Origin: a virus
Taxonomy: Duplodnaviria > Heunggongvirae > Uroviricota > Caudoviricetes
DNA: 64,000 nt
Strand: one strand, 5' to 3'
Virus record (IMG/VR): IMGVR_UViG_3300017766_004476
Location: 12,413-76,412 of that record
Shown: in pieces, positions 5,627 to 48,095 of the stretch
Numbering within the stretch: position 1 is the stretch's first letter
How the letters are laid out: every line of letters starts with the position of its first letter
Position numbers and translations under genes: made by a program
The notes under the pieces: generated by a model
Database searches by the model: none
What the model was told of the DNA's origin: nothing
The model's input: the letters and a program-made list of their open reading frames with translations, nothing else

Positions 5627-5715
5627 GAGGAAACCTATTTAGCTTTGGTTCTAAATAGGTTTTATTTTAAAATGATAGTTTGATATACGAATGATTAAAA
5701 TCGATTTAGATCAAA

Positions 5716-7163: not shown

Positions 7164-7697
7164 TTAATATCTTATATCAGGGTTTGAAGGATTAAAAGAA
7201 CCTTTATTGCCAGTTGCTGATTTAATTTGGCTCGGATCAAATACTACAAACTCTCTATCTGCACTCGGGGTATCAGAAAAACCAATTATTCCATCATACC
7301 CCATCTTCTCCCATTTCTTTATGAGTTGTGGGAGATTGTCATGATACTGAAGATAAGAAGACTTACCTTCAGGAAGTAAGTCTTGAGGTACTGGATTAGT
7401 TATTCTAAGGTAAGCAGGAATAACTCGTGCAGATACGAGCTCTTTTCTATTTACGAAAGCGGCATATTCATGAGAGTTTTGGGCAATAGTACTAGCATAC
7501 TCCGGTTCATCAGTAAAATAACTCGGATAATCTTTAAGGAATTTATCTTCAAAGCTTACCATTGCTCGACCATGATAAACTCTCAACGGTCTACCCTCAC
7601 TATCAACTACTTTAGATCCTGCAAACCATTTTTGAAACTCAGGAGTAAGTACTTGATTACGATTCTCAGCTAAAAAATATGTCTTAAAGTCGATCAT
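7164..7697 (-). CDS. CTS-like-leader protein, paralog pair A (YHGR motif; conserved C-terminal tail)
   Basis: MIDFKTYFLAEN leader, then KVVDSEGRPLRVYHGR. The C-terminus IKSATGNKGSFNPSNPDIRY is shared with 7701..8237. Confidence 0.6.
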   Translation of the reverse strand: MIDFKTYFLAENRNQVLTPEFQKWFAGSKVVDSEGRPLRVYHGRAMVSFEDKFLKDYPSYFTDEPEYASTIAQNSHEYAAFVNRKELVSARVIPAYLRITNPVPQDLLPEGKSSYLQYHDNLPQLIKKWEKMGYDGIIGFSDTPSADREFVVFDPSQIKSATGNKGSFNPSNPDIRY

Positions 7698-7700
7698 AGG

Positions 7701-8237
7701 TTAATGTCTGATGTCAGGGTTAGAAGGATTGAAGGAACCTTTGTTACCGGTTGCAGATTTGATCTGCTCTGGATAAAACGGAACATATGAATCACCTTTT
7801 CCTTCAACTTTATTAGAGTAAACCAAACCATCATACCCCTCTCGTTTAGCTCTCTGGATTATATATGCCCACATAGGGCCTAGTGTATCATCTTCAACTC
7901 GTTTAGGGTTTTTAATTGATAAATAGACAGGCACTATATTAGGCGCTTTACCTTTCATATTTTGAGTCATCCATTCATAATCTTCTGGAGATATAGTCCA
8001 ACCTCTTAAAATTTTATTAGCTTGTTCTGAAGAGCCAAAATGGCCTAATGCTCCACCTCCACCCATAAGCGTAGCTTCCTGATCTTTAAAAGTATTAAAA
8101 TCGTCAACTCGTCCATGATAAACAACTAAAGGATTACCTTGAGAATCAACCACCTTTGATCCCTTAAACCACTCTTTAAAGGCTGGTGATTCAGTCACTT
8201 TATAGTTCTCTGTAAAGTATTCCTTAAAGGTGTGCAT
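7701..8237 (-). CDS. CTS-like-leader protein, paralog pair B
   Basis: MHTFKEYFTENY leader, then KVVDSQGNPLVVYHGR and the same C-terminal tail. Confidence 0.6.
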   Translation of the reverse strand: MHTFKEYFTENYKVTESPAFKEWFKGSKVVDSQGNPLVVYHGRVDDFNTFKDQEATLMGGGGALGHFGSSEQANKILRGWTISPEDYEWMTQNMKGKAPNIVPVYLSIKNPKRVEDDTLGPMWAYIIQRAKREGYDGLVYSNKVEGKGDSYVPFYPEQIKSATGNKGSFNPSNPDIRH

Positions 8238-8557
8238 TAGTTTGAAAAGAGAGCAACGTTCTGACCATCTTGAGATACCCCAATAGCCATTCCGTTCTGA
8301 GCATTTGCATCTTGATCGAAATAGGAAAGACGTACTAAGTAGAAGAAATCTTCAGGAGTACTCTTCTTCCAATCAGAACCATAACCGTGCTCTTTAGAGA
8401 TACTAATAAGACGTGCAGTATCCTTTATGTTCTGAACATATGATTCATCTCCGAGTTGAGGGGCAACCTTTAAGAGGATGTTTTCGAGCTTTAAGAAGTC
8501 CGGAGTTGCATTCATCTCTTCATATGCTTCTGCAAGTAATTCTAAATGATGTTTCAT
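8237..8557 (-). CDS. small protein, MKHHLELLAEAY leader family
   Basis: Shares the leader family. Confidence 0.5.
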   Translation of the reverse strand: MKHHLELLAEAYEEMNATPDFLKLENILLKVAPQLGDESYVQNIKDTARLISISKEHGYGSDWKKSTPEDFFYLVRLSYFDQDANAQNGMAIGVSQDGQNVALFSN

Positions 8558-8569
8558 GATAATATTTAA

Positions 8570-9049
8570 TTAGTATTGAGGACGTTGCGGATCCATCTGT
8601 GAGACTGGACCATCAAAGGTTTCATATTCACCAAGTGCCTGATCATCACCATGCGGGTCAACCTGAGGAGAGGTATAGTTCTGAACCTGATGTATATCTG
8701 CAACCTCATAATAAGCAGAGGTAGCCACATGAGTAGCAACCTTTACAATATCCTCTTCTGAGAGATCAGTCTTAGGCTCAAAAAGCCATTCATGATTGTC
8801 TTCATAGATATAGGCATGTTCATCACCCTGAATAATCTTTGACACAGAAGTCCAATTAGTGTAGCTATTACGCGGATGAAAGGTAATATTAAAGCCTTCT
8901 TTAAGTTTGAAGATAAGCTGGGCAATCTCATCAGCAGACTTACCTTTAATATCAACATTTTGAGAAGCGGACATATTCTCTATGAGAAGTCGAGTCTGTT
9001 GTACCTTTATATAGGCTTTCTCAAGAAGGAACTTTTCGGTGCGGTTCAT
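8570..9049 (-). CDS. hypothetical acidic protein (159 aa)
   Basis: ORF only. Confidence 0.5.
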   Translation of the reverse strand: MNRTEKFLLEKAYIKVQQTRLLIENMSASQNVDIKGKSADEIAQLIFKLKEGFNITFHPRNSYTNWTSVSKIIQGDEHAYIYEDNHEWLFEPKTDLSEEDIVKVATHVATSAYYEVADIHQVQNYTSPQVDPHGDDQALGEYETFDGPVSQMDPQRPQY

Positions 9050-9187
9050 ATTATTATTATTTAATGATTATAAAGGCAGAACTAAAAAAGTGCAAAAAAA
9101 TTCACAAAAAATTTTTGAGAATCTTGAGAAATATAAACTGAAAGAAAGAGTGATGTTCGAGAGAATGATATTATTATAATATCATAA

Positions 9188-9688
9188 ATGAAACTATTTC
9201 AACAAGTTAAAGAGATTAGATCTCAGCAAGGAGAGTTACACTTCCAAAGGTATGCTATTATAGAGACGCATAAGTGGGCTCTCTATATTCATCGGATCTA
9301 TAAAGAAGATAAAGATGAACATTTACATAGTCATCCGTGGAACTTCATGAGTGTAATTCTGTGGGGTGCGTATATAGAACAATATGCTCCTGAGTATAAT
9401 CGGATGAGAGTAAAGTGTGAAGGATCATTCAGTAAGGCTGATCGGAACTACTTTCACAAGATCGTTGACATACTCAGGGGACCCGTAACTACGTTATTCT
9501 TTACGTGGGGAACACATCAACCATGGCATTACTGGGTTAAGGGTGAGAAAGTAGAATCAACAGAGTATCGGAAACAGAAGAATATTGCCCGGATGGCACA
9601 AGAGGTTGCACATAAGATAGATGCACAGATAGTTAAGAAGCTCCAGGAGCAGATTCCAGTACTAGAGAATCGTAAAATTTTACGATAA
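9188..9688 (+). CDS. hypothetical protein (166 aa)
   Basis: Plus-strand ORF immediately left of the island boundary. His-rich HLHSHPW segment. Confidence 0.45.
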   Translation: MKLFQQVKEIRSQQGELHFQRYAIIETHKWALYIHRIYKEDKDEHLHSHPWNFMSVILWGAYIEQYAPEYNRMRVKCEGSFSKADRNYFHKIVDILRGPVTTLFFTWGTHQPWHYWVKGEKVESTEYRKQKNIARMAQEVAHKIDAQIVKKLQEQIPVLENRKILR

Positions 9689-9921
9689 AAAAATTTCCGA
9701 GAACCGAGAACTTAAAAAGAATTTGGAAAAAAATTGGCATGGGGTCCGGATCGGAGTGCAAGCTTTTTCTATATCTAATAAATTTTCGTACTTAAGGCTT
9801 GCATTTCGCGGTGTGCTCCGATCCCCTCTCCACCTTTCGAGATGGCTGAGGCTCTCGAGAGCACACCGCTCTTAATTGTTCTAGTATCATTAAAGCTTGC
9901 CAGTTTGTTTAGATCAATGCT

Positions 9922-10179
9922 CTAGTAGCGCATAGTGACCACCTTCCTTTCTTTCACAGCATCCAATCCGGACAGCTGAGTGCACCCCTTCACTGAGGTG
10001 GCTGACCCATCCACAGCACCGCAATCAAATTGATTACCTTTACTCATCATCGGAGTAAAGTGCTCATCGCTCCAGCTCACACTCAGCTCAGCGCCCTGCA
10101 CTGCTGGGCTCCCTATCACAGGGCGCTGAGTCATGAGTATGTGTCCTGCGCTCGGTGTGATGAATATGTTCTTAATCAT
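9922..10179 (-). CDS. island gene 8, hypothetical (85 aa)
   Basis: GC-rich ORF. Promoter at 10193-10221 (TTGCAC-N17-TATAAG), 13-nt leader. Confidence 0.5.
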   Translation of the reverse strand: MIKNIFITPSAGHILMTQRPVIGSPAVQGAELSVSWSDEHFTPMMSKGNQFDCGAVDGSATSVKGCTQLSGLDAVKERKVVTMRY

Positions 10180-10192
10180 AACGTCTGCCTAT

Positions 10193-10221
10193 CTTATAGC
10201 TGCAGCCCGATTAGAGTGCAA
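10193..10221 (-). promoter_or_regulatory. island promoter TTGCAC-N17-TATAAG
   Basis: Exact hexamers and spacing. One of 8 copies. Confidence 0.5.
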
Positions 10222-10230
10222 CCGTTTTGT

Positions 10231-10626
10231 TTACTTTACTTCAACAGCCTCAACGAGCGGACCGTTCTGGTTGCCCACGCACCACATAATCCAAGCCCCA
10301 GCAATGGTGCGTGCGCGGAGCTCCCAACCGTTCGACATCGCAGCCAAGTAGCCGCAAATCCAATCTGGACGGAACGACTGGCGGATGCTCTCAGGCGTCA
10401 AGCCATATTCGTATGCAGAGAGCTCGATGCGCTCCAATCCGAACTCGTTGAAGTGATACGATGCCTCGCCTGCATAGATGTGTACATCGTTTCGCTTATC
10501 AATCTCGATGGTCACATCGCCGGGTGCCTCGATGACTTGCTTCATCGTTGCGCGACGCTCTGCGCAGGCTTCAGCAGTTAGCGCTTCAGGGTTGGTGATG
10601 GTCGTGAGCTTGAATTTATATTTCAT
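10231..10626 (-). CDS. island gene 7, hypothetical (131 aa)
   Basis: GC-rich ORF. The -10 CATACT lies 6 nt before the ATG, predicting a leaderless mRNA. Confidence 0.55.
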   Translation of the reverse strand: MKYKFKLTTITNPEALTAEACAERRATMKQVIEAPGDVTIEIDKRNDVHIYAGEASYHFNEFGLERIELSAYEYGLTPESIRQSFRPDWICGYLAAMSNGWELRARTIAGAWIMWCVGNQNGPLVEAVEVK

Positions 10627-10632
10627 AGATGC

Positions 10633-10661
10633 AGTATGGCTCTTTTTCGGAGGGAGTGCAA
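10633..10661 (-). promoter_or_regulatory. island promoter TTGCAC-N17-CATACT
   Basis: Exact hexamers and spacing. Confidence 0.5.
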
Positions 10662-10910
10662 CTACTTTGTGGGGCGCGGCAGGCTCGGAGGAATCGTCAG
10701 GAGGCTCCGACTCGTGATGTTCATGATGCCCACCACCGGCACCTGCTCTACCAAATTGGGAATGATTGCTTGCACTCCGCAGATGAAATGGAACTCAGCA
10801 TCGCGGCCTGCCTTGCCCTTCGGCCACCCCTTCTTGTCGAGGAGCTGGAGCTCGGTGAGGTGCTTAAGGAGCATTGCGTGTAGTTCGTCGAATGTGATGT
10901 TCTTTATCAT
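10662..10910 (-). CDS. island gene 6, hypothetical (82 aa)
   Basis: Same architecture. Promoter at 10917-10945. Confidence 0.5.
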   Translation of the reverse strand: MIKNITFDELHAMLLKHLTELQLLDKKGWPKGKAGRDAEFHFICGVQAIIPNLVEQVPVVGIMNITSRSLLTIPPSLPRPTK

Positions 10911-10916
10911 GTCAAT

Positions 10917-10945
10917 AGTATGGTTGATTTCTCGTTCTAGTGCAA
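10917..10945 (-). promoter_or_regulatory. island promoter TTGCAC-N17-CATACT
   Basis: Exact hexamers, 6 nt to the ATG. Confidence 0.5.
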
Positions 10946-11158
10946 CTACTCATTCCGAAATCGTGCCACAATGTTGTCCAAGTCAACACCCCGCATCACG
11001 TCCAATCCGCAATGGGTGCTCGGATGCAAGCGCTTATTGTCCAATGCGCACACATCCTTCATCCGCTGGTGCAGCTCCGGCTTGAGCACTTTGGCCCAGC
11101 TTGCGATGTGCTCTTCTTGGATTTTGATTCCTTCCGCAACTGTGAACTTAATTTTCAT
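10946..11158 (-). CDS. island gene 5, hypothetical (70 aa)
   Basis: Same architecture. Promoter at 11165-11193. Confidence 0.5.
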   Translation of the reverse strand: MKIKFTVAEGIKIQEEHIASWAKVLKPELHQRMKDVCALDNKRLHPSTHCGLDVMRGVDLDNIVARFRNE

Positions 11159-11164
11159 ACAGTC

Positions 11165-11193
11165 AGTATGGCTCTAAATTTGTTTCTGTGCAA
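11165..11193 (-). promoter_or_regulatory. island promoter TTGCAC-N17-CATACT
   Basis: Exact hexamers, 6 nt to the ATG. Confidence 0.5.
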
Positions 11194-11312
11194 CTACTTT
11201 TCCGAATTCTTTTCAGCGCCTACGCTCGAGAGAATGCACTCCCTCGCACACCGCAATAGCCCTAAGCGCTGAAAGGAACTCGGAGGGGCTGCCTCCGAGT
11301 AGTGTAAAGGCT

Positions 11313-11591
11313 TTAGGCCGCAGAGGCAACAGCTTTCTTCCGCACGGCGCGCTTCTTCGGAGCCGGAGCCTCGGGCTCAACCGCTTTGGGAGCCGGAGCC
11401 GCCACGAGCTTCGCCTGCTTGGGCTCGCGCTTGGCCCGCTCGTTGAGCCAGCGGAACGTGGGGGTGTGCAGAACGGCCGGATAGGTTCCGTTGCTCTGCG
11501 CCTGAGCGATGAGCTGGTTGACCGCATCGGTCGCGCTGAGCTCTTTGCGCTTGACGCGCTCCTTGTAGCTGTGATGCATTGTTGTCTTCAT
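11313..11591 (-). CDS. island gene 4: small basic protein with Ala/Pro/Lys-rich histone-H1-like tail (AAPAPKAVEPEAPAPKKRAVRKKAVASAA)
   Basis: Start at MKTTMHH. Promoter at 11635-11663 (TTGCAC-N17-TAATAT), 44-nt leader. Confidence 0.5.
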   Translation of the reverse strand: MKTTMHHSYKERVKRKELSATDAVNQLIAQAQSNGTYPAVLHTPTFRWLNERAKREPKQAKLVAAPAPKAVEPEAPAPKKRAVRKKAVASAA

Positions 11592-11634
11592 ATGTTTTTG
11601 TTTCCGACAGTAATCGTTATTGATTACAAAAAAG

Positions 11635-11663
11635 ATATTAGCTGTTTCCCGTGGGCAGTGCAA
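11635..11663 (-). promoter_or_regulatory. island promoter TTGCAC-N17-TAATAT
   Basis: Exact spacing. Confidence 0.45.
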
Positions 11664-11669
11664 CTCTTT

Positions 11670-11960
11670 TTAGAGTTTAATTACAACTACTTCCGCAATA
11701 TAGTGCTTGCCCGTCCCGTGCTGTTTGCCGAATATAGAGAACACCCAGCCGGAGATCTCGTCGTTCATATCCCGCATCCAGGAAACTTCTTCCGCCTGGA
11801 GCTGCTCGTCGTCGGGCAATGCATCGACGTACGCATTGATTGCAGCCATCTCGTGCGAGGGCTCGGGCCTCCGGTCCACCGCATCGTAGTGCTGGCCCCG
11901 GAGGCTGGGCGTATCGAAGTAGTTCTTAATCGTTATCCGGACCGCATATTTCATTTTCAT
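11670..11960 (-). CDS. island gene 3, hypothetical (~96 aa)
   Basis: Start placed at the second ATG so the -10 (CACACT, 11967-11972) lies 6 nt upstream, as in its siblings. Confidence 0.5.
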   Translation of the reverse strand: MKMKYAVRITIKNYFDTPSLRGQHYDAVDRRPEPSHEMAAINAYVDALPDDEQLQAEEVSWMRDMNDEISGWVFSIFGKQHGTGKHYIAEVVVIKL

Positions 11961-11966
11961 ACTCAT

Positions 11967-11995
11967 AGTGTGGCTCCGTTTCTAGTTCTGTGCAA
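11967..11995 (-). promoter_or_regulatory. island promoter TTGCAC-N17-CACACT
   Basis: Exact spacing. Confidence 0.45.
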
Positions 11996-11998
11996 CTA

Positions 11999-12370
11999 TT
12001 AATTGTAGAAATGTTTCCGAATTACAGAGTTGCCTTCGATGGTGAGAACGACTTCAATACAGCACTCGCTGTCTTCCGAATTCTGATACATGACCCAGCA
12101 GCCCGGAGTGTGCCACCCGCTGACCGTATTCTTATCCTTATCGCGCCAGAACACCACCCCCGACAGCTCTCCTTGTGGAATGTCGAGCTTTTCCGCCACC
12201 TCGATACACAAGTTGCCGATATCAGCTTCCATCCCCATCCCATCCTTGCCGAATCCGATAGGCTGAGCATAGACGGGACCACGGCCCAGCCATTGGCTGA
12301 AGCACATCCACAATTTGCTATCGTCGATGTAGTCAATCATCTTCCGGTCAATTGTCGTATCATTTATCAT
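11999..12370 (-). CDS. island gene 2, hypothetical (~123 aa)
   Basis: The -10 CATACT (12377-12382) sits inside the longest ORF, so the start is moved to the Met 6 nt downstream (MINDTT…). Confidence 0.5.
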   Translation of the reverse strand: MINDTTIDRKMIDYIDDSKLWMCFSQWLGRGPVYAQPIGFGKDGMGMEADIGNLCIEVAEKLDIPQGELSGVVFWRDKDKNTVSGWHTPGCWVMYQNSEDSECCIEVVLTIEGNSVIRKHFYN

Positions 12371-12376
12371 ACCCAG

Positions 12377-12405
12377 AGTATGGCTCATCCGCAGGAGCAG
12401 TGCAA
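12377..12405 (-). promoter_or_regulatory. island promoter TTGCAC-N17-CATACT
   Basis: Exact spacing. Confidence 0.5.
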
Positions 12406-12447
12406 CAATTTTCTAAAATATATTTCACGGCCCACCCGAATTTTTGC

Positions 12448-12476
12448 TTGCACATTCCCGAATTTTTCTTTATAAT
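12448..12476 (+). promoter_or_regulatory. plus-strand island promoter P1 (TTGCAC-N17-TATAAT)
   Basis: Consensus-like hexamers. Transcript would start GGGATTGGACCCCTCG. Confidence 0.5.
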
Positions 12477-12527
12477 GGGATTGGACCCCTCGTTACTTTA
12501 CTTTACAAAGAAAGCCCGAATAATGTA

Positions 12528-12556
12528 TTGCACTGCTAAAAAGAAACCGCTATAAT
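12528..12556 (+). promoter_or_regulatory. plus-strand island promoter P2 (TTGCAC-N17-TATAAT)
   Basis: Tandem copy of P1. Transcript would start GGGTCTGGACCTCTCG. Confidence 0.5.
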
Positions 12557-12562
12557 GGGTCT

Positions 12563-12668
12563 GGACCTCTCGTCGCTCGGCCTCCCGCACATAGGGAAAG
12601 GGAGATTATCGCTCCCTCTCGGTGTGAAAAGCCAGCTCCAAATCCTTTTCTTTTCTGCTGGCTTTTTA
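12563..12668 (+). ncRNA. candidate small non-coding RNA (~105 nt from P2, ~185 nt from P1) ending at an intrinsic terminator
   Basis: Promoter, then internal hairpin AGGGAGattatcgcTCCCT, then terminator AAAGCCAGC…GCTGGCTTT + TTTAT (12627-12668). No plausible ORF or SD. Confidence 0.4.
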
Positions 12669-12728
12669 TCAAGGAGAGTGCGACACTCTCGTCGAATGTC
12701 GCACTCTGTGAACTTTCAGACTTGCCTT

Positions 12729-13265
12729 TTAGCCGTTCGCTTCGACCGGCTGCTCAGCGATGTTTTCGACTTGGGGCTGGCCTTCCGGAGCCGGAGTGGG
12801 CTCGGGCGTCGCACCTTCCGGGGCCTGCGCAGCCTTTTTGCTGGCCTTCTTCGCGGCGGGCTTGGTCTTCTTGGCTTCCTTCGCAGCGCGCGCTTCCGCA
12901 GCCTTCGCAGCGCCATCGGACGGGGCGTTCGTCTTCATCTTCCCGTTCAGCTCGAACAGCTTGGCGATGAGCTTTTCCGGATTGGTGCTTGCCATCTTGT
13001 GCATCTCGAACTCCTGGGCCTTCTTGCCCGCGCGCTTGCGCACTTCCTCAATCGTCGCGCCCTTCCGCAGGTCGCTCAGCACGTTCTTGGGAACGTAGAA
13101 TTCGACGATTTCGTCGACCTCAACCTTGCGCCCGAGAATCTCGGAGCGACCCTTGGCCTTGTCGGCGAGGTAGTTGGCGTTGGTATTGCGGGAAGCACCG
13201 GTCAAGCAGCAGACGAGCTGCGGGCACTTCGATTTGGATTCGTTCTTTTTTGCTTTGCGAGCCAT
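12729..13265 (-). CDS. island gene 1: Lys-rich basic protein with AKKxAAK/PEP-rich C-terminal tail (histone-H1/AlgP-like tail)
   Basis: Start at MARKAKK. Promoter at 13335-13363 (TTGCAC-N17-TATCTT) with ~70-nt leader. The antisense 336-aa plus ORF is low-complexity and rejected. Confidence 0.55.
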   Translation of the reverse strand: MARKAKKNESKSKCPQLVCCLTGASRNTNANYLADKAKGRSEILGRKVEVDEIVEFYVPKNVLSDLRKGATIEEVRKRAGKKAQEFEMHKMASTNPEKLIAKLFELNGKMKTNAPSDGAAKAAEARAAKEAKKTKPAAKKASKKAAQAPEGATPEPTPAPEGQPQVENIAEQPVEANG

Positions 13266-13334
13266 ATGTTTGGTTCTTTCTATTTGTTGTTGTTTGTTTG
13301 CTTTACTACTATTCAGCACTTAGCTGATGTTGAT

Positions 13335-13363
13335 AAGATATGTTCTATTTTCGTTCTGTGCAA
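13335..13363 (-). promoter_or_regulatory. island promoter TTGCAC-N17-TATCTT
   Basis: Exact spacing. Confidence 0.4.
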
Positions 13364-13513
13364 CTTTATTTTGAACTTTTTTTCACTTTTGTTTAGCTTA
13401 GTGTTTCTTATCTACATCGTGCGCAAGCACTTTCTTATGCACCAATCTATATGCTTATTAATAACTAGCAAGAAAAATCTGAATAAAAAGTTCACGAAAT
13501 CCCGAATAAAAGC

Positions 13514-13541
13514 TTGCATCCCGGAGAAATATCGCTATAAT
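13514..13541 (+). promoter_or_regulatory. sigma70-like promoter TTGCAT-N16-TATAAT driving a 12-codon ORF and a structured RNA
   Basis: Followed by a perfect SD AAGGAG (13554-13559) and ATG at 13565 (MLRMRSAHDKRS*, 13565-13603). Confidence 0.45.
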
Positions 13542-13708
13542 ATGTTCTCTTTTAAGGAGTTCTAATGTTGAGAATGAGATCCGCTCATGATAAGAGATCT
13601 TAATCGGATCAGATTAGGGATGGGGCTCTGGGTTGCGGAGTGCAGATGTGGATAAGGTCTGAGGCCTCCCGGCTGCGGATCTGGCTCCGGTCCGGATGCA
13701 GCTCGGCA

Positions 13709-13785
13709 TTCAGGGAACGCGCTCTGCAGAGAAATCAGATTTACTTGAATGATTTTTGATTTCTCTGCAGAGCGCGTTCCCTGAA
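13709..13785. repeat. 29-bp perfect inverted repeat (arms 13709-13737 and 13757-13785) with a 19-nt loop
   Basis: TTCAGGGAACGCGCTCTGCAGAGAAATCA / TGATTTCTCTGCAGAGCGCGTTCCCTGAA, exact reverse complements. Confidence 0.9.
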
Positions 13786-14283
13786 AGAACACAGCGCGCC
13801 CGAATAAAAGCTTGATTATCCCTATAATGCGAGAACACTGTGCACTTTAATGATTCTCTGAGGCCTTTGTTCTAAGTCGTAAAGGTATGAATCACTGTGT
13901 TTGTATATGAAATGAAACAAACCTATTTAGAACAAAAGCTACATAGGGATCCGCAGGGGTTAAAAGATATGTCTGACTCGGTAGATATGTAATGAAGAGG
14001 AAGCGCTGAGGAGAGCCTGGCGGGGCAGAGAGTTCTGATACGTGTGTACGCGGTTCTGATAACGTGACGCGGGTATCAGATTGAGACGGGGCTAATAGAT
14101 AGGCCCCGCGAGGTTCTGAATATGAGGGTTCTTTAAACTATCTGAAGGATTACGGATTATAAGAGAGCTACCGGACCGAATAATGCGGATCGGTAGAGGC
14201 TTATAGGGCTCGGAAGGAGTCCGGAATATCTAGAGTTGAGAAAGTTGGAAAAAAATTATCCGGATCCGGGTACCTTTATACGC

Positions 14284-14359
14284 GACCAATTTTCCACTCT
14301 CTTCAGATCACCAATTCTCTTGAGTATTCTCATCCACTCTCTTCAGATCACCAATTCTC
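14284..14359. repeat. 27-bp direct repeat x2 (CCACTCTCTTCAGATCACCAATTCTCT)
   Basis: Two copies separated by ~22 nt, just outside the island's right boundary. Confidence 0.8.
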
Positions 14360-14391
14360 TCAAGCAGTCTCTGCCTCCTTATTTCTCTCCA

Positions 14392-14435
14392 TAAAAAATC
14401 CCATTACTAGATCTATCTCAATTTCTAGTAATGGG
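14392..14435 (-). terminator. rho-independent terminator downstream of 14456..14767
   Basis: CCCATTACTAGA…TCTAGTAATGGG hairpin followed by TTTTTT on the minus strand. Confidence 0.6.
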
Positions 14436-14455
14436 AAGAGTAAAAGACTCGATCT

Positions 14456-14767
14456 TTATTCTATATACTTCCAGAGTATATCGTAAATACGTCTCAGGTC
14501 CTTCTTAACCTCATTAGTTATCACTCCGTTCTCGTCAGGGTACTTCTTGTTTATGTGTTCTATTCCTATTAAGCATTCATGAGCCATCATACTGAAGTTC
14601 ATCCGTGCTTCATCCTTTCTTTGCTCTTCAGGAGTCATCTCAGGATGTACCGGCTTAGGTACTAGTGTTGCCTGATCTTTCATCTCTTTAGGGAAGATGT
14701 CGGGAGGAGTAGGAGAGGTTATCTGATCGTATGCCTCTGCCAAGAGTTGGGTGTCTTTATTCTTCAT
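14456..14767 (-). CDS. small protein, MKNKDTQLLAEAY leader family
   Basis: Leader family member. Its 5' ~40 nt repeats in the next two loci. Confidence 0.5.
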   Translation of the reverse strand: MKNKDTQLLAEAYDQITSPTPPDIFPKEMKDQATLVPKPVHPEMTPEEQRKDEARMNFSMMAHECLIGIEHINKKYPDENGVITNEVKKDLRRIYDILWKYIE

Positions 14768-15006
14768 GGTCGTTCATCTCCATCTACCCGGAGAAGGGTT
14801 AACAGCTTATGTGCTAAGTCCGCCTCTTCAGGAGTGAGACCTTCTTTCACATCTTTAACATATGACAGCTCCCCCATAAGGCTGTCAATTAACATATGTG
14901 ACTCTTCTTTGGGGTTTAATTTTATGAGAGTTGCTTTGGGGCCTTTAGGCTTATTAACTTTACCTTCATATGCCTCTGCCAAGAGTTGGGTGTCTTTATT
15001 CTTCAT
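14764..15006 (-). CDS. small protein, MKNKDTQLLAEAY leader family
   Basis: Tandem paralog. Confidence 0.5.
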   Translation of the reverse strand: MKNKDTQLLAEAYEGKVNKPKGPKATLIKLNPKEESHMLIDSLMGELSYVKDVKEGLTPEEADLAHKLLTLLRVDGDERP

Positions 15007-15015
15007 TATCTTTAT

Positions 15016-15321
15016 TTAGAGATATTTCCAAATATTCTTTTTACCTAAAGGTATAATCTCAATGCCATCACGGCACAGGAGCAGATAGTTTTCATCACCC
15101 TCTCCGGACCCTTCTAAGAACATCGGAAGTGCTACCTCGATCGGTACCGTACCATCTTCCTTACACTCTTCAATTGCATCTTCAACGCTTCCGAAGACCT
15201 GCGTTAGAATCAGTTCTTTTAACGAAGAGAAGCGGGTACGAATTTTCGGTTGATTGTCCCCGAAATAGTCATCCATTCCAATGAGAATGAATTCGCGATC
15301 TGTTGTCTTATTCTCTTTCAT
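15016..15321 (-). CDS. hypothetical protein (101 aa)
   Basis: ORF. An in-frame stop immediately upstream prevents fusion with the leader remnant. Confidence 0.45.
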   Translation of the reverse strand: MKENKTTDREFILIGMDDYFGDNQPKIRTRFSSLKELILTQVFGSVEDAIEECKEDGTVPIEVALPMFLEGSGEGDENYLLLCRDGIEIIPLGKKNIWKYL

Positions 15322-15409
15322 ACTTTATTTGTTGAGGGAGAAGAAATTGAGGACCTTTAACCTTTTGTTCATATGCCTCTGCCAACAATTGAGCGTCTTT
15401 CTTATTCAT
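15308..15409 (-). pseudogene. 33-codon remnant of the LLAEAY leader family (MNKKDAQLLAEAYEQKVKGP…*)
   Basis: Retains the conserved leader and 5' DNA repeat but stops after 33 codons and overlaps the next gene. Confidence 0.3.
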
Positions 15410-15413
15410 ATTT

Positions 15414-15713
15414 TTATTTAGTGCGGTACACTGTGATAATAGTCTTCTCTTCCTTGCCATCATCTCCATCAACCCACATTTCAAGAGATGTATCATCATC
15501 TACTCCCTCGGTGGGAATACCCAGAAGCCATGATATTAGAGTAACTGTGCGTGAGTTGTTAAGAAGGACAGTTAAACCGAAATCATCATTTGCTTCAAAA
15601 ACCCGTCCTGGGATTTCTACTCCATTATCATACCGCAGGGTTACAAAGTCTCCCTTTGCTAAGCTATTCACTTCTGTTATCTTTATGAGCTTAACTTTCT
15701 TATTCATACACAC
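15414..15713 (-). CDS. hypothetical protein (99 aa)
   Basis: ORF. Confidence 0.45.
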   Translation of the reverse strand: MCMNKKVKLIKITEVNSLAKGDFVTLRYDNGVEIPGRVFEANDDFGLTVLLNNSRTVTLISWLLGIPTEGVDDDTSLEMWVDGDDGKEEKTIITVYRTK

Positions 15714-21042: not shown

Positions 21043-21432
21043 TTAACCTCTCAATTTGGCATATGCCGCGTTTAATTTTTCGAGAATATCGATCGGAAAC
21101 TCTGCACATCCCACCTTGATCGACTCCTTAGTGACCGATGCAGTGTATTTGCCGTTAAGCACTACAGAGATGCTCTGCAACGCATACTTATCAGTATCAG
21201 AAAAGAATTCTTCGAACGTAATAGTTGTATGTGAAGAGAAGCTGTGAGGATTGCCTCCCCAATGTTTCAAGTAAGGTTTAATCACTAACCAATGATACTC
21301 ACTGTAATGTACGAGATAATTTGCGGCATTAAAACCGTTTGATGATTTGAAGCCGCGGCTTTCCAAGAAGTTTACGATTGCCTGTACCCCCGCAGCACTC
21401 TTACAATCGATTTGATAAATTGTTTCTTTCAT
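21043..21432 (-). CDS. hypothetical protein (129 aa)
   Basis: ORF. Confidence 0.5.
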   Translation of the reverse strand: MKETIYQIDCKSAAGVQAIVNFLESRGFKSSNGFNAANYLVHYSEYHWLVIKPYLKHWGGNPHSFSSHTTITFEEFFSDTDKYALQSISVVLNGKYTASVTKESIKVGCAEFPIDILEKLNAAYAKLRG

Positions 21433-21913: not shown

Positions 21914-22027
21914 TGCCGGTGGAGGGATTCGAACTTAGCTTGTACTTCGCTACCGCTGCTCGTGCACGAGCCAGCGCCTCTCTACCTAGTTTATCAAACT
22001 AGCGCTCTGCCATTAAGCTACACCGGA
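21914..22027 (-). tRNA. tRNA-Ile(GAU)-like gene interrupted by a ~42-nt palindromic insertion inside the T-stem
   Basis: Acceptor, D-arm (GCTT/AATGGCA/GAGC), anticodon arm (CTAGT-TTGATAA-ACTAG) and T-loop TTCGAAT are canonical. An extra 21935-21976 segment (contains GCTCGTGCACGAGC) separates the T-stem 5' half from the loop. Confidence 0.5.
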
Positions 22028-22959: not shown

Positions 22960-23304
22960 TTAAATCTGACGCAACCACTTAAACTCGAGAGTTATCGGGA
23001 GTTGTGGTAACAACGCTCTCCGAGTTCCGCCATTTCGTAATCCGAACGGATGCGTTACTTCTGAGCTCGTAATTTTTTTACAGAGCTTAGAGTTATTTAC
23101 CGCATACTGTTGATTATCGAGATTGACTACATCCCAACCGACACCTACACGGATGTTCTCATCTTGTACATATTCCGCTACTGCTTGAGCAAGTACACAC
23201 TGCTGACAAAATTCGATATCTTTTGAAGCATCCTGAGCTGCATCTTCTGCCATCTTGAGATGCGTTTCAGTTACTACTACGATAAATGATTCTCTTTTTC
23301 TCAT
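22960..23304 (-). CDS. hypothetical protein (114 aa)
   Basis: ORF. CTAAATAAAC 43 nt upstream. Confidence 0.45.
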   Translation of the reverse strand: MRKRESFIVVVTETHLKMAEDAAQDASKDIEFCQQCVLAQAVAEYVQDENIRVGVGWDVVNLDNQQYAVNNSKLCKKITSSEVTHPFGLRNGGTRRALLPQLPITLEFKWLRQI

Positions 23305-23805: not shown

Positions 23806-24135
23806 ATTGATATAATAACAGATTCTCTTAAGGTAAACAATTACTTATTTTGATTTCTTTATCTTTAATGATAGAGGGGAAATAGACTATAACCTGCAAT
23901 CCCATACTATCCTGAGATGATTTGCGCAATCCCTTTAATGCACAGAGCTCGATAACTTCTGTTGCATCGTTACAAACAATACCGGGACATTGACGACCGA
24001 ACATCCCCCGACCGCTGTAATCTCTATAAACCGTTCCATTAACTTCCTGAGCGACATCTTCGAGGATTTTTAATGCTTGTGCGTATGTTTTCATTTATCG
24101 TTAATGTGTGTAATATAAATGCTTTTTAAGACATT

Positions 24136-25183: not shown

Positions 25184-26029
25184 TTGTTTTATAGTTTTAT
25201 AATAAATAATTGTATGAATAAAGATGAGGTACAAGAGCAAATTAATAGATTTAAGACCACAAATACTGGTAAATTTAAAAGCCTTCTATTTGATAACAAT
25301 TTGAAGCTAGTAATGTGTGAAGAGTGTAAAGTGACAGATACATATAATTCTAAACCAATAACTCTACAACTTCATCATATTGACGGAAATAATCAAAACA
25401 ATCATATTGACAATTTTCAGATATTATGCCCTAATTGTCATTCACAAACTAAAACATTTAGAGCCCCTAAAAGGGTAACAGACGATCAAATTTTAGCAGC
25501 TGCAAATAATTCTAAAACAATATCAGAAATTATTAAAAAGCTTGGAAAATATGCAAGTGGGGGTATTTATAAACGTATTGAAAAGGTTATTTTAGAGCAT
25601 AAATTGCCTATTACTAAGTATGATTATACGTCTAATAGAGCTATAGGATTTAAAAAGCCTCGAGGTAGAAAGCCTACAGGTTTGACACTAAAGACACATA
25701 TATGTAAGCATTGTAATTTAGAATTTAAACATACACACAAACGAACATATTGCTCATCAAAGTGCACCCATGATGCAGCATGTAAGTATAATATTGATGT
25801 TCAATCTGCAATTCCACTCATTAAAAAATTTGGATGGAGTCAAGCCGCAGTAAAATTAAATATCAATACAAAATGTCCTGATGTTACTCTCCGCTTAGCT
25901 GTTAAGCGCCATATAAAGTATATCGACCCAACACTTGACCTTCATGAATTATCTAAATTCAGTCATCATTCTAGATACATATATGACAAAGAAACTCGAC
26001 AGAGAATAGATAAATCTCTGTCGAGTTAA
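25184..26029 (+). mobile_element. free-standing HNH homing endonuclease (Mob-like), adjacent to a tRNA gene
   Basis: CEEC…HHIDGN…NxQILCPNCH HNH core. Sole plus-strand gene in a minus-strand block. Probable start at 25214. Confidence 0.75.
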
Positions 26030-26031
26030 CT

Positions 26032-26121
26032 TGGTACCACAGACTGGACTTGAACCAGCACACTGGGTTAAACCAGCTAGGGATTTTAAATCCCTTGCGT
26101 CTGCCATTTCGCCACTGTGGC
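26032..26121 (-). tRNA. tRNA-Leu(UAA), type II with long variable arm, CCA encoded
   Basis: Acceptor GCCACAG/CTGTGGT, anticodon loop TTTAAAA, variable hairpin CTGG…CCAG, T-arm GCTGG-TTCAAGT-CCAGT, 3' ACCA. Confidence 0.75.
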
Positions 26122-30578: not shown

Positions 30579-30871
30579 AAATTAATAGGTGTTACTAGGC
30601 GCCCAACCCAAGATGCTTATGGCTTGCCTTTCGGGAATCTACTCAGCAATGCATCTAAAAACTTTCGGGAATCTACTCGTTGAACCTAATCATTATTTCA
30701 TAGCTGATTATCGCTAACGAATTAAAATATAAGATGTCTGTGAAAATATTAAAGCTTTTATTTAGAACATTTATCTCTGGCTTTTGTTCTAAGTGGTTCA
30801 TTTTATCAAATACATCTTTGTATATAAATTATAAACAAATTGATTAGAACAAAAGCTCTAATGAGCAAACA

Positions 30872-34877: not shown

Positions 34878-35285
34878 TTATACTTTGATGTTTTTAATGT
34901 CAGAAAAATCTTCTAGTGTGTTACAGAAGATATAGGAGATCTCATCAGGCATTGCACGGACTGGTTGTGTAAGGATGTTGGGGTTAATACTCACTATTAC
35001 TTTACGCAGCTGTGCAGGTAAAACCAACCACTTCATATAACCACCCTCATAAGAAAGTTTATTGAGCAGACAAATAATTCGTTGACCGCTTTTATATCCA
35101 AAGACCACCATTATGACAGCTATATTACCTATGCTATCATATACGTAAAGCTCTGGTTCCTGTTTAAGTGCATCAATCTCCTGAGGAATGAAACCATATT
35201 GAACACCAGAATCAGGGAAAGGTTGAAGACGGTTAACACCGAATGTATATGTCTTTTTTACTTCAATCGTTTTATTTTCAGTCAT
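34878..35285 (-). CDS. hypothetical protein (135 aa)
   Basis: ORF. Confidence 0.5.
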   Translation of the reverse strand: MTENKTIEVKKTYTFGVNRLQPFPDSGVQYGFIPQEIDALKQEPELYVYDSIGNIAVIMVVFGYKSGQRIICLLNKLSYEGGYMKWLVLPAQLRKVIVSINPNILTQPVRAMPDEISYIFCNTLEDFSDIKNIKV

Positions 35286-37417: not shown

Positions 37418-37533
37418 AAAGGTTTTTATTATAGTGTTCTAATTGTCGAGCTTTTGTTCTAAGAGAGTTTCTTTTATAATATGAGTAGCGAGTGTGATTG
37501 AAAATTGAACTACTTAGAACAAATGCTATAAGG

Positions 37534-38842: not shown

Positions 38843-39120
38843 ATAGACCTCGACTTTCTTTGATCAACAGGAATTGAGGATGTGTGTTGACCAAAGAGCA
38901 TTTTTTCAAGATGATATTGATCATCAGCATGAGGCTTTACCCCTAAAGAGACTGATTCTCCATAAGGTATTACTCGCTTATCCTCCCAGTCGATTGATAC
39001 AAAGCCCGCACCGATTACCTTTTTACCTCTTACAGTGTGTGCATGCTCTGCATGTTCTGGAAAGATTAACGGTACAGTAAGTCCAAACTCTCCTTCTATT
39101 GTCACATATTTAAGTCTCAT
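38839..39120 (-). CDS. hypothetical protein (93 aa)
   Basis: ORF. Confidence 0.45.
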   Translation of the reverse strand: MRLKYVTIEGEFGLTVPLIFPEHAEHAHTVRGKKVIGAGFVSIDWEDKRVIPYGESVSLGVKPHADDQYHLEKMLFGQHTSSIPVDQRKSRSI

Positions 39121-39673
39121 AAGCGTATAAATTCTTTAGGTAGTCTCCATATTCATTACGGAGCTTGGCACGAATATTACAAAGTCGTACCTTAATGGTA
39201 TTAGGAGTAGTGTTAATTCTCTGTGCAATCTCCTTAATAGGCACCTCATCAATATAAAACCAAGTAAAGATATCTCTATATTGATGCGGAAGAAGGTTGA
39301 TTATTGGTTCAATACCTAATTCTGAAACATATTGATCTTCAGCTATCATTGAAGATATTTCATTACGTGCAGATAATCCGAGCTCATCATCATCGATATA
39401 AACTTTATTTACCTCTCGGTAAGGCATAGGGCAGCGGAAGAGAGTATCAACAATCTTCCGTTTTGCTGCTACGATAAGCCACCGATGAACTGCATCTGAG
39501 TTGTGAGATTTGAGTTTAGTAAAGGAGTTGTAGAGAGAGATAAAGACATCTTGAACAATATCTTCTACATTAATAGTACCTCGCGGGCACTTGGTATAAA
39601 TGTAGTTTCGAATAGTATTTACCTCTTTAAGGTAAACTTGTTCAAACATTTCATTTATTTGTTCTTGATGCAT
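39110..39673 (-). CDS. sigma-70 family (ECF-like) RNA polymerase sigma factor
   Basis: Region-2-like DIVQDVFISLY and region-4 HTH VPIKEIAQRINTTPNTIKVRLCNIRAKLR. Confidence 0.65.
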   Translation of the reverse strand: MHQEQINEMFEQVYLKEVNTIRNYIYTKCPRGTINVEDIVQDVFISLYNSFTKLKSHNSDAVHRWLIVAAKRKIVDTLFRCPMPYREVNKVYIDDDELGLSARNEISSMIAEDQYVSELGIEPIINLLPHQYRDIFTWFYIDEVPIKEIAQRINTTPNTIKVRLCNIRAKLRNEYGDYLKNLYAYET

Positions 39674-40714: not shown

Positions 40715-40990
40715 TTACTCCTCAGATTTTTTTAAAGTCGGTACTAATACCATCTCATTTTCTTCATCCTTGATGATACTCCAATTATATCGATCAGACA
40801 ACCAAAAGCCTAATCCTTTAAAAGAACCATCACCACGAATCTGAATTGTAGTCAAATTATTAATCTTTATTTGTTCTGCGGCACTAGGTTCCTTGACCGT
40901 GTTAAATAATAGATCGCTCTTCTCAAATTCAACAAAGGATGTCTTTGCCGCTGGTGGCTTAATTCTACCTTTTTTATATTCAACTTTCAT
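40715..40990 (-). CDS. hypothetical protein (91 aa)
   Basis: ORF. Confidence 0.4.
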   Translation of the reverse strand: MKVEYKKGRIKPPAAKTSFVEFEKSDLLFNTVKEPSAAEQIKINNLTTIQIRGDGSFKGLGFWLSDRYNWSIIKDEENEMVLVPTLKKSEE

Positions 40991-45677: not shown

Positions 45678-45947
45678 TTAACAAAGTACTAAACCATTTC
45701 TGCTTATATAGTCAACAACTTGATAAAAGCCTCTCAATACTGTAGGCTCTACCCCTTCTTTATTAACAGACTCAGTAGAGTTAAAGATAAGTACTACAAC
45801 ATTATTCCCTTTATAGTACTTTTTAAAAAGTGATGATTTTGGTTCTGCAATGTAGTATCCTATATTCTCATATGAGAGATAGTCTTTAATTAGAGTAGCA
45901 GTCTCCTTTTCACGCCCAAAATTTAAGGATAGTACGTATGCAATCAT
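45678..45947 (-). CDS. hypothetical protein (89 aa)
   Basis: ORF. Confidence 0.45.
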   Translation of the reverse strand: MIAYVLSLNFGREKETATLIKDYLSYENIGYYIAEPKSSLFKKYYKGNNVVVLIFNSTESVNKEGVEPTVLRGFYQVVDYISRNGLVLC

Positions 45948-46378
45948 TTAATTAGCCCTCTCTGAATAAGGTGATAGATAGTAAACCAATCCTCTTCTCC
46001 ATTAAAGCCTGCCTTATCATCAAGGAGAACATTGAAGTAAAACTTATGAGAGAAGTCACATAGTTCAGTATTAGGGCAATCAGGATTCTGATTGATGTAG
46101 TGAAATGCTAAATCAAACCTTTCAAGCGCACCTTTAATAGCGTCGGGGTGGCTTGATGTCCAGAGAATGGATTTATGTTCCTGACACTGGAGAAGATGCG
46201 CAAGGCAGAACTGCGCGTATGGATAGACTGTTGCACCTTCATTGTTGCGGTTATACTTACCGGTAATGATGGTATCATGCAAATCAATAGCCCAAAAGAT
46301 GTGTGTCCAATCAGGACGTCTACGCTTTTGCTCTAATACCTTTAAGATATGTCTCTTTAGATGCTCATTGATTTGCAT
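45944..46378 (-). CDS. hypothetical protein (144 aa)
   Basis: ORF. Weak HAD-like DLHDT. Confidence 0.5.
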   Translation of the reverse strand: MQINEHLKRHILKVLEQKRRRPDWTHIFWAIDLHDTIITGKYNRNNEGATVYPYAQFCLAHLLQCQEHKSILWTSSHPDAIKGALERFDLAFHYINQNPDCPNTELCDFSHKFYFNVLLDDKAGFNGEEDWFTIYHLIQRGLIK

Positions 46379-47116: not shown

Positions 47117-48091
47117 TTAAAAGAGTTGACTAACACTTTGATGTGTGTGAATGTTAATAATTGCATCTGCAAATAATTTACCAACAGTAAAGCATTGGAT
47201 GCTTGAAGTTGGAGGAACTAATCGAATCGGATGAGAAACTGTATCACTATAGATAAACAGATCAATAGCTCCCCGTCCTCCCACTTGATCATAAACTTTA
47301 TTATACGTCTCTTGATCTCCACAAAAGTGAGTAACTGCACATACGACTCTCTCAGCACCCTTTTCTTTTGCAATACGTGCAGCTTGAATAATTGTAGATG
47401 CGCTTTCGGTAAGGTCATCTACAATCAATACAGTCTTACCATTTACATCTCCGATAAAGTGATTAAACTTTACTTCACTATCACTTATGCGGCGCTTACT
47501 AATGACTGCAAGGTCCGTACCCAGAGCCTCTGCATATCTTTCTGCCCGCTTTAGTGCGCCGATATCAGGTGCAACTATAACCAGATTCTTAAATTTATCA
47601 GGATTATGGCGAATGTGGTTGATTATTATAGTCTCAAAGTAGAGATGATCGAGAGGGATATCAGTAAAGCCGACAGCTTGAGGGCTATGAAGATCCATAG
47701 TCAGGATTCGATCGACACCTGCAGCTTTAAATTGATTCATTACCAATTTTCCTGTTACAGGTACCCGTGCCTTATCCTTACGATCCTGCCGCATATACCC
47801 CATAAGCGGACATACAACAGTAACTCTCCGTGCAGATGCTCTCTTTGCAGCATCGACCATTACAAGAAGATCCATCAGTGCATCATTAACCGGCCGACAG
47901 AGTGACTGAACTAAGAAAACATCTGCATCACGAATGTTCTCATGAATCTGACAGTAAGATTCTCCGCTTGGGAATCTATGAGTAAATATATCCCCTATAA
48001 TAGAGGGTGAGTGAGACTCAAGATAACTACTCAACGTTGGCTTAATGCCTGCAGTATTACTATGTCCAAAGAAGACTTTTAGTTTATCCAT
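47117..48091 (-). CDS. prs: ribose-phosphate pyrophosphokinase (PRPP synthetase)-family protein; diverged 5-phosphate-binding loop
   Basis: Start at MDKLKVFFG. Carries FPSGES, RQDRK and MDLHSPQAVGF motifs. The canonical VDDxxDTGGT is replaced by VDDLTESAST. Confidence 0.85.
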   Translation of the reverse strand: MDKLKVFFGHSNTAGIKPTLSSYLESHSPSIIGDIFTHRFPSGESYCQIHENIRDADVFLVQSLCRPVNDALMDLLVMVDAAKRASARRVTVVCPLMGYMRQDRKDKARVPVTGKLVMNQFKAAGVDRILTMDLHSPQAVGFTDIPLDHLYFETIIINHIRHNPDKFKNLVIVAPDIGALKRAERYAEALGTDLAVISKRRISDSEVKFNHFIGDVNGKTVLIVDDLTESASTIIQAARIAKEKGAERVVCAVTHFCGDQETYNKVYDQVGGRGAIDLFIYSDTVSHPIRLVPPTSSIQCFTVGKLFADAIINIHTHQSVSQLF

Positions 48092-48095
48092 ATTT

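Follow-up and report, generated by a model that had tools for sequence, protein, structure and literature searches.

What places a block of small, GC-rich genes inside an otherwise AT-rich phage genome, and how are such genes expressed and exchanged there? The question is raised by a 64,000-nucleotide stretch of a tailed virus of the Caudoviricetes (IMG/VR record IMGVR_UViG_3300017766_004476, positions 12,413 to 76,412 of that record; hereafter the window, numbered from its first letter), which belongs to a source contig of 112.7 kb. An earlier note, written by a model from the letters of the window, had singled out the interval 9723-14257, here called the island. Our reading, for which we claim moderate confidence, is that the island is a tandem series of leaderless ORFan cassettes, each under its own promoter, which were acquired horizontally and occupy a plastic region in a novel freshwater phage of large, jumbo-like type; they would be shuffled at junctions made up of a stop codon, a promoter and a start codon.

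The island is set apart by its composition. One-kilobase windows over 10-13 kb have a GC content of 0.52-0.54, and all others in the 64 kb lie at 0.32-0.45. A 200-nt scan shows the climb beginning near 9.8 kb and peaks of 0.60-0.66. The core, 9790-13270, has a GC content of 0.530 against 0.388 for the remaining window (38.9 ± 1.5% elsewhere), and the top 3.5-kb window outside the island reaches 0.425. GC content within the island is uneven, with dips at the intergenic promoters and a fall to 0.31-0.35 at 13.3-13.5 kb; the segment 13271-13545 has 32% GC, and the non-coding right arm, 13546-14257, has 46%, with values of 0.45-0.55 again over 13.55-14.25 kb. The GC jump that the earlier note described is therefore real in a core of about 3.5 kb (53%), but the interval 9723-14257 is not uniformly GC-rich.

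The compositional shift sits mainly at synonymous sites. GC content at the three codon positions is 0.56, 0.40 and 0.70 in island genes and 0.49, 0.35 and 0.35 in background genes, none of which exceeds 0.55 at the third position (GC3), so that the suggestion of a foreign composition holds at synonymous sites. GC3 ranges from 0.59 to 0.79 among the cassettes, and synonymous codon use differs from the background for TTC (87% vs 36%), CGC (53% vs 16%) and AGA (0% vs 27%). The first eight codons are AT-rich in every cassette (GC 0.25-0.42).

The minus strand of the island carries eight consecutive small open reading frames (ORFs), A to H, followed at the left edge by a solitary promoter-like box:

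12729-13265, minus strand: gene A, 178 amino acids, with a histone-H1-like tail; promoter TTGCAC-N17-TATCTT at 13335-13363, A/C-rich leader of about 70 nt, GC3 0.79.
11999-12370, minus strand: gene B, 123 amino acids, predicted leaderless, with its ATG 6 nt past CATACT; promoter at 12377-12405.
11670-11960, minus strand: gene C, 96 amino acids from the second ATG, predicted leaderless; promoter at 11967-11995 (CACACT).
11313-11591, minus strand: gene D, 92 amino acids, with a Lys/Ala/Pro-rich tail; promoter TTGCAC-N17-TAATAT at 11635-11663, A/C-rich leader of 43 nt, GC3 0.79.
10946-11158, minus strand: gene E, an ORFan of 70 amino acids, predicted leaderless; promoter at 11165-11193.
10662-10910, minus strand: gene F, an ORFan of 82 amino acids, predicted leaderless; promoter at 10917-10945, GC3 0.76.
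10231-10626, minus strand: gene G, an ORFan of 131 amino acids, predicted leaderless; promoter at 10633-10661.
9922-10179, minus strand: gene H, an ORFan of 85 amino acids; promoter TTGCAC-N17-TATAAG at 10193-10221, 13-nt leader, GC3 0.59; also in the sister phage introduced below (contigs L010/L004).
9756-9761, minus strand: a ninth TTGCAC box, probably the remnant of a cassette junction; GCCAAT stands at N17 in place of a usable -10, and no gene follows.

All eight genes are preceded by (TAG)TTGCAC-N17-(C/T)A(T/C)A(C/A/T)T or by a looser TTGCAC-N17 promoter, and the hexamer after the 17-nt spacer has A at position 2 and T at position 6, the TATAAG of gene H excepted. The strict pattern TTGCAC-N17-YAYAMT occurs eight times in the window, against 0.13 expected. 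Exactly 6 nt separate the -10 from the ATG in five of the eight genes (B, C, E, F and G); the hexamer reads CATACT in E, F and G, and in B and C the spacing requires the second in-frame ATG, since the ORF finder's first ATG falls within the -10 or directly adjoins it. The -35 box touches the preceding stop codon or shares bases with it (the TAG of gene F falls within the TAGTTGCAC of the following cassette), island start codons lack a Shine-Dalgarno (SD) motif, and the shared dialect is TAG-TTGCAC ... GAGC-CATACT. Thus the earlier note was right about eight minus-strand genes each with its own TTGCAC-N17 promoter, about the five 6-nt spacings and about Lys/Ala/Pro-rich C-terminal tails on two products, A and D; its view of self-contained units of promoter and gene that look early-expressed is supported as well. 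The H1-like basic tails suggest nucleic-acid binding.

GC3 exceeds GC1, and GC1 exceeds GC2, in each minus-strand ORF, a pattern absent from the overlapping plus-strand ORFs. Because of this pattern, and of the purifying selection on G described below, we take the minus-strand ORFs to be real genes. The overlapping plus-strand ORFs (for example 12555-13565) were rejected as genes for their wrong codon-position GC pattern.

The geometry of these promoters belongs to the phage as a whole. ORFs were called across the entire window and their upstream regions inspected; 44 of the 117 non-island genes have a -10 match of at least 5/6 no more than 30 nt from the ATG. Ten genes have a spacing of 6 nt and six a spacing of 7 nt, a sharp peak that takes in 16 of the 117, where random internal ATGs give a match at about 1% per position. 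SD-like motifs precede 12% of the non-island genes, no enrichment over the 10.6% of the control. The phage's own promoter consensus is approximately TTGAA-N17-TATTAT-N6-ATG, with TATAAT-like boxes too, and TTGCAC-N17 promoters also stand before the neighbouring gene at 9095, just beyond the island (with a perfect TATAAT), and before a sigma-factor gene, at 39709. Judging from these signals, many genes across the phage appear to be expressed from leaderless mRNAs, a style that points to a host tolerating such messages. The leaderless, SD-free geometry is the phage's general style and is therefore not specific to the island, only the sequence dialect being so; the idea of a private promoter architecture has to be given up. 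Examples of the leaderless type lie at 21043-21432, 34878-35285, 40715-40990, 45944-46378 and 60408-60602, and the leaders of the phage's leadered genes are A/C-rich and unstructured.

Evidence on how the array changes comes from a second phage. A 97% variant of protein B pointed to sample 3300017747 of the Joint Genome Institute (JGI), in which three contigs of a sister phage (L003, L004 and L010), overlapping by 123 nt at 100% identity, tile the window over 15337-8593 at 98.7-99.7% identity. The island is thus present in two samples, and the sister carries it at the same site, with both junctions. Genes D, E and F are 99.7% identical between the two phages, and homology then ends precisely at the end of AGTAGTTGCAC, where the sister has a 650-bp insert holding two extra GC-rich cassettes, each with the same promoter type:

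L004:1026-1616, between F and G': X1 (90 amino acids, leadered, GC3 0.73) and X2 (92 amino acids, predicted leaderless, GC3 0.63), neither with a counterpart in the window.

X2 has its promoter and first codons (MIN...) in common with gene B, and the -10-N6-ATG spacing recurs in X2 and in G', the sister's version of G. Homology picks up at the next AGTAGTTGCAC, but G' is only 88.7% identical to G; identity is back to about 97.6% from the promoter of H onward. The breakpoints of both events, the insertion of X1 and X2 and the replacement of G by G', coincide exactly with AGTAGTTGCAC. Between G and G', synonymous divergence (dS) is 0.53 and non-synonymous divergence (dN) 0.055, and their ratio of 0.10 indicates that gene G has evolved under strong purifying selection. 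Gene B holds 8 of the 20 window-sister differences over 3.3 kb that are otherwise 99.5% identical, including four amino-acid changes (two of them two-base changes), and from this pattern its product may be a fast-evolving interaction surface.

These observations suggest the following model. Each unit would consist of a stop codon, a promoter, a start codon and an ORF, in the form (TAG)TTGCAC-N17-CATACT-N6-ATG, and transcription would start on the A of the ATG or right beside it, giving a leaderless mRNA. The island would thereby use the same expression design as the phage's own genes, in a host evidently not reliant on SD motifs. The conserved junctions of about 35 nt would double as recombination adaptors: homologous exchange at them could insert, delete or replace whole cassettes, with stop, promoter and start always restored. 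The high third-position GC content would be the mark of a donor pool richer in GC, for which other phages with the same type of transcription and translation signals are the most plausible candidates. By analogy, the products are probably early, non-essential host-interaction proteins; the part in anti-defence or host takeover that the earlier note suggested is pure conjecture. What the data show directly is the composition, the geometry of the promoters, that the ORFs are coding, polymorphism at the level of whole cassettes and occurrence in two samples; the starts of transcription, the early timing, the donor and the functions of the proteins are inferred.

Could the island instead have been inserted whole, as a discrete satellite- or transposon-like element? 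The features that bear on this are:

9723-9735, plus strand: left exact copy of the 13-bp repeat TTGGAAAAAAATT, unchanged in the sister.
14245-14257, plus strand: right exact copy of TTGGAAAAAAATT, likewise unchanged.
13863-13939, no strand assigned: a phage-wide inverted repeat, GCYTTTGTTCTAA-N51-TTAGAACAAARGC (13-nt arms around a variable spacer of about 51 nt), with other, intergenic copies at 30780-30856, 37450-37526 and 51868-51944.

The 13-bp direct repeat that the earlier note had reported is indeed exact at 9723 and 14245, near both GC transitions, with imperfect additional similarity (CCGGATCC-like) beside both copies, and the array is self-contained with insulating terminators; TTGGAAAAAAATT would then be a target-site duplication or attachment site. 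However, maximal exact direct-repeat pairs of 13 nt or more number 100 in the window, and in 24 of these the copies are 1-10 kb apart; the motif is, moreover, A-rich and of low complexity. We judge the pair a chance or low-complexity repeat and not a boundary. Variation between window and sister lies inside the array, at the promoter junctions, and leaves both repeat copies unchanged. The phage-native inverted repeat lies between gene A and the right copy, and because of its presence there the right arm of the interval first proposed is native phage sequence. As the note had said, integrases, transposases and homing endonucleases are missing from the island in Pfam, PHROG and NCBIfam searches, and neither a relaxase nor any other endonuclease was found among its proteins. 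An element of this kind, hitch-hiking or otherwise, is thus very unlikely, and with it the role of the repeat as a meaningful bracket. The repeat was also considered as a terminator and rejected, its folds being weak (z -0.6 and -1.1).

The change in composition is abrupt, as it would be had an assembly error joined the DNA of a GC-rich organism to a phage contig, a possibility that the earlier note had itself named as one that would refute its reading. The chance of this is negligible: an independent Logan contig, SRR10520205_5915, matches 7239-14759 at 100% identity, across both junctions; the three contigs from the second sample cross both as well; and the island genes are built on the leaderless geometry found throughout the phage. 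We regard both a discrete mobile element and a chimera as effectively excluded.

The reading of a promoter-bounded cassette array has precedents. In the hyperplastic regions of T4-type phages, shuffling mediated by promoter early stem-loop (PeSL) motifs has been proposed (Arbiol et al. 2010, PMC2839356; Comeau et al. 2014, PMC4122927). As there, small ORFans in a plastic region are directly preceded by a recurring sigma-70-like promoter motif, which takes in the stop of the upstream gene and the start of the downstream one, and the motifs delimit the indels or replacements that distinguish near-identical phages, here those of X1 and X2 and of G and G' at AGTAGTTGCAC. The view that the island is unlike hyperplastic-region content accordingly falls away, since promoter-bounded insertion and replacement of cassettes is what PeSL-type regions display (PMC2839356). 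The differences are nevertheless considerable: in the island the start codon follows 6 nt past the -10 without an SD motif (predicted leaderless), an AT-rich tract upstream of the -35 is lacking, the junction measures about 35 nt and not about 100 nt, and the GC content of the cassettes is far above that of the genome. Moreover, the phage is not demonstrably T4-type. The label had been applied in the earlier note, but T4 core genes were not seen in the window and the best protein matches are to jumbo phages; T4-like RNA ligases (Rnl1, Rnl2) and TATAAATA-like boxes are present. As most island junctions are without a stem-loop, and as AT-rich tract and SD motif are lacking, the junction motif is not a PeSL in the strict sense.

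The cassettes also recall the morons of lambdoid and other phages, characterized in the account of Juhala/Hendrix 2000, as relayed by Cumby et al. 2012 (PMC3594210), by their own promoter and terminator and a deviant GC content. Common to that description and the island are independent transcription units with their own (here predicted) promoter, added DNA that is (here probably) non-essential, and a GC content that differs from the neighbours (53% vs 38.9%, with GC3 of 0.70 vs 0.35). Here, however, eight or more stand in tandem, only A and D have a terminator of their own, and, as the phage looks virulent, expression from a repressed prophage is inapplicable. Absence from a relative is seen for X1 and X2 only, which the sister has and the window lacks. 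Integron arrays are alike in their tandem, small, mostly orphan genes exchanged singly at conserved junctions, but the island has neither attC sites nor an integrase, every cassette has its own promoter, and exchange appears to be homologous recombination at promoter repeats. Indeed, no integrase domain was found in the island or in the overview of the window, and what lies at the junctions is a promoter each time, without resemblance to the imperfect palindromes of attC.

Leaderless genes of Actinobacteria, Deinococcus and Caulobacter have TANNNT 6-7 nt before an A/GUG start. Like such genes (e.g. Shell et al. 2015, cited in PMC8244752), five of the island genes have a -10 whose second base is A and whose sixth is T, placed precisely 6 nt in front of the ATG; an SD motif is lacking and the first codons are AT-rich. 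They differ in that the island promoters also have a strong -35, and the starts here are predicted from sequence. A phiKZ-style analogy was set aside, phiKZ being without leaderless transcripts.

Several results weigh against our reading and bear on its parts. The first concerns the junctions, most of which have neither a stem-loop nor a terminator as a PeSL would: hairpins in the island follow only D and A, the B/C, C/D, E/F, F/G and G/H junctions are without one, and a 6-bp spacer hairpin occurs in the X2 promoter of the sister. The second concerns the donor. Searching the eight proteins by tblastn against 50,697 phage genomes gave no match, A and G found only themselves among 5.8 billion proteins, and B found in a large protein collection its 97% sister copy and a weak similarity to PKD/Ig-like repeats. 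The third is that acquisition of the island is inferred from composition, with no island-free relative found. The fourth is the persistence of GC-richness in G and G' despite a dS of 0.53, which could mean that selection maintains it. Finally, the island promoters are predictions, and the form of polymerase and the timing are uncertain given that the phage encodes a sigma factor.

Further searches agree with the ORFan status of the cassettes. None of the eight proteins, nor X1 or X2, has a significant match in Pfam, PHROG or NCBIfam (a few weak ones fall below family thresholds), as expected from the earlier description of the proteins as lacking recognisable domains, and a sequence search of the PDB with the island proteins gave no match. 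Single-sequence AlphaFold models of A and G (predicted local distance difference test scores, pLDDT, of 48 and 44) were too poor for fold searches. Relatives without the whole island were not found, protein scans of viral, metagenome and genome contigs giving nothing. Scans for the cassette motif gave nothing in viral contigs (IMG/VR) or in genome contigs (185,579 species genomes, where the scan detects close matches only) and only the sister phage in JGI metagenome contigs; we put down to chance four single matches that CCCGAATAAAAGCTTG has among the viral contigs.

These results bear on the idea that the genes were captured straight from a bacterial host chromosome. Such an origin could account for the composition if the host were GC-rich, and the leaderless signals would be host-compatible. 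Yet neither the cassette motif nor peptides of C, D, E, F and H are matched in the 185,579 species genomes, in searches that detect close matches only, the large protein collection gave no homologue of A or G, and all the genes are very small ORFans of the sort typical for accessory genes of phages. We consider direct capture highly improbable.

Retention of GC-richness by selection, in place of a mark of recent transfer, seems to us unlikely, though it would suit the GC-rich state of G and G' at their dS of 0.53 and of the sister-specific X1 and X2, the confinement of AT-richness to the first eight codons, and the H1-like tails of A and D. One possibility is that genes expressed first escape a host silencer or nuclease that binds AT-rich foreign DNA, with A and D serving to counter the silencer or to coat DNA. 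No direct evidence favours such selection, and the shift, mostly synonymous and in another codon dialect, is what a different mutational background would produce. The range of GC3 among cassettes (0.59-0.79) and the shift of G toward AT at third positions relative to G' (18 vs 8 sites, p = 0.08) fit amelioration. Composition thus fits, but does not prove, our preferred account of import from a GC-richer pool with differing residence times and partial amelioration.

The promoters themselves admit another interpretation, which involves the following gene:

39110-39673, minus strand: a phage sigma factor resembling those of extracytoplasmic function (ECF) type (Sigma70_r2 and r4_2), with its own promoter TTGCAC-N17-TATATT-N7-ATG.

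The TTGCAC promoters could form the regulon of this factor, making the island a middle-phase module and not one transcribed early by host sigma-70. The promoter of the sigma gene is of the kind seen in autoregulated ECF sigma genes, the eight island promoters share the non-consensus -10 CATACT, often with AGAAC right after TTGCAC, and the motif is nearly confined to the island. Against this, TTGCAC and TATAAT at 17 nt make up the housekeeping sigma-70 pattern, and usual ECF promoters have AAC at -35 and CGT at -10. The plus-strand copies and the copy at 9095 have a perfect TATAAT, and common ancestry of the cassettes explains the similarity of their promoters without a dedicated factor. We find such a regulon doubtful. 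TTATATTACACACA recurs upstream of the sigma gene and of the genes at 22960-23304 and 23828-24094.

Beyond the cassettes, the island and its right flank contain plus-strand promoters, candidate RNAs and terminators:

12436-12668, plus strand: two promoters, TTGCAC-N17-TATAAT, at 12448-12476 and 12528-12556, with CCGAATWW boxes before each, conserved in the sister.
13501-13790, plus strand: promoter CCCGAATAAAAGC-TTGCAT-N16-TATAAT at 13514-13541 and a candidate RNA of about 240 nt, with CCGAATWW boxes upstream.
13960-14240, plus strand: a G-rich, structured non-coding stretch with GTTCTGA repeats (GC skew +0.36; z -3.6 and -3.2).
11278-11302, minus strand: a terminator-like hairpin after gene D (ACUCGGAGG...CCUCCGAGU, then UUCCUUUC; -21.1 kcal/mol, z -2.9).
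14396-14432, minus strand: the intrinsic terminator of the upstream native operon (-21.6 kcal/mol, z -4.2, then UUUUUU).

These three strong plus-strand promoters, placed in the two long intergenic regions of an island whose genes otherwise run on the minus strand, appear to drive structured small RNAs. The promoter at 12528 precedes a candidate small RNA of about 105 nt (z -2.3) that ends at an intrinsic terminator, 12629-12668 (z -5.2), which also serves gene A on the opposite strand. The candidate of about 240 nt (-114.8 kcal/mol, z -7.7) ends in a perfect 29-bp hairpin at 13709-13785. Five window-sister changes, including a 2-nt insertion, are packed into 11 nt of this candidate (13686-13696), in a 350-nt stretch with no other difference; the cluster falls in a hairpin-prone part, and both versions are able to form local stems. 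A search of the non-coding arm against Rfam returned no family, only spurious sub-threshold microRNA-hairpin matches to the 29-bp inverted repeat. Eight of the window's 17 CCGAATWW boxes lie on the plus strand at 11.7-14.2 kb. The terminator at 14396-14432 would insulate the island from read-through, and between it and the island two tandem direct repeats of 39-40 nt, 90% identical (14293-14371), could be protein-binding iterons.

The motif of the phage-wide inverted repeat has 18 matches in the window, against 4.4 expected. Single copies occur at 5642, 6434, 21791, 31296 and 62926, and in some copies TTAGAACAAAAG lies 17 nt upstream of a -10 box; the element may be a second promoter-class box or a composite of terminator and promoter. 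Outside the island, the sister lacks an 80-amino-acid paralogue (14768-14965), apparently lost by recombination between the 35-nt repeats 14727-14761 and 14966-15000. A paralogous family with common N-termini (MKNKDTQLLAEAY...) occupies 14456-15006, 15308-15499 and 8237-8557.

The phage itself has no nucleotide relatives in the phage collection searched. Its closest proteins are those of jumbo phages of Xanthomonas, Ralstonia, Caulobacter and Salicola and of huge uncultured phages, with one protein closest to Mycobacterium and Streptomyces phages. The window encodes a salvage set for nicotinamide adenine dinucleotide (NAD), comprising NAMPT, PRPP synthetase and NMNAT-Nudix, as well as NADAR, two tandem ART-PolyVal ADP-ribosyltransferases, GmrSD_N, the two RNA ligases named above and an SPFH protein. 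The NAD and ADP-ribose genes, located at 7164-8237, 47117-48166, 51944-53365 and 53794-54741, with the NADAR protein somewhere in the window, suggest NAD+ replenishment against NAD-depleting defences. We also note a 114-nt tRNA-like Rfam match at 21914-22027 (minus strand), uncalled by ARAGORN and possibly an interrupted or unusual tRNA, and, at 25184-26121, a tRNA-Leu(TAA) immediately beside a gene for an HNH endonuclease, in the kilobase where the window's GC content is lowest.

A more ambitious version of our reading can be framed, although we hold it only tentatively and would not expect it to prove correct. In this version the 35-nt junction would be a dedicated adaptor for leaderless cassettes, allowing continuous sampling of ORFans from a GC-rich pool without a recombinase; the array, the structured RNAs and the CCGAATWW boxes would form a separately regulated immediate-early module whose GC content is functionally maintained (for example against AT-directed silencing), with A and D acting on DNA.

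The feature is largely explained by known principles, and by itself the finding opens no long-standing question. What is new are the predicted leaderless 35-nt junctions, the strong GC contrast and the setting in a large phage not demonstrably of T4 type. The shuffling of promoter cassettes, of PeSL or moron kind, would thereby be extended beyond T4-like coliphages to an uncultured large freshwater phage with an SD-free system. With the whole intergenic signal compressed to about 35 nt, the junction would be a natural example of how foreign ORFans can be plugged in with guaranteed expression. The ten small ORFans, A to H with X1 and X2, are reasonable candidates for host-takeover and anti-defence screens, and the phage-wide leaderless design hints at the translation biology of the host.

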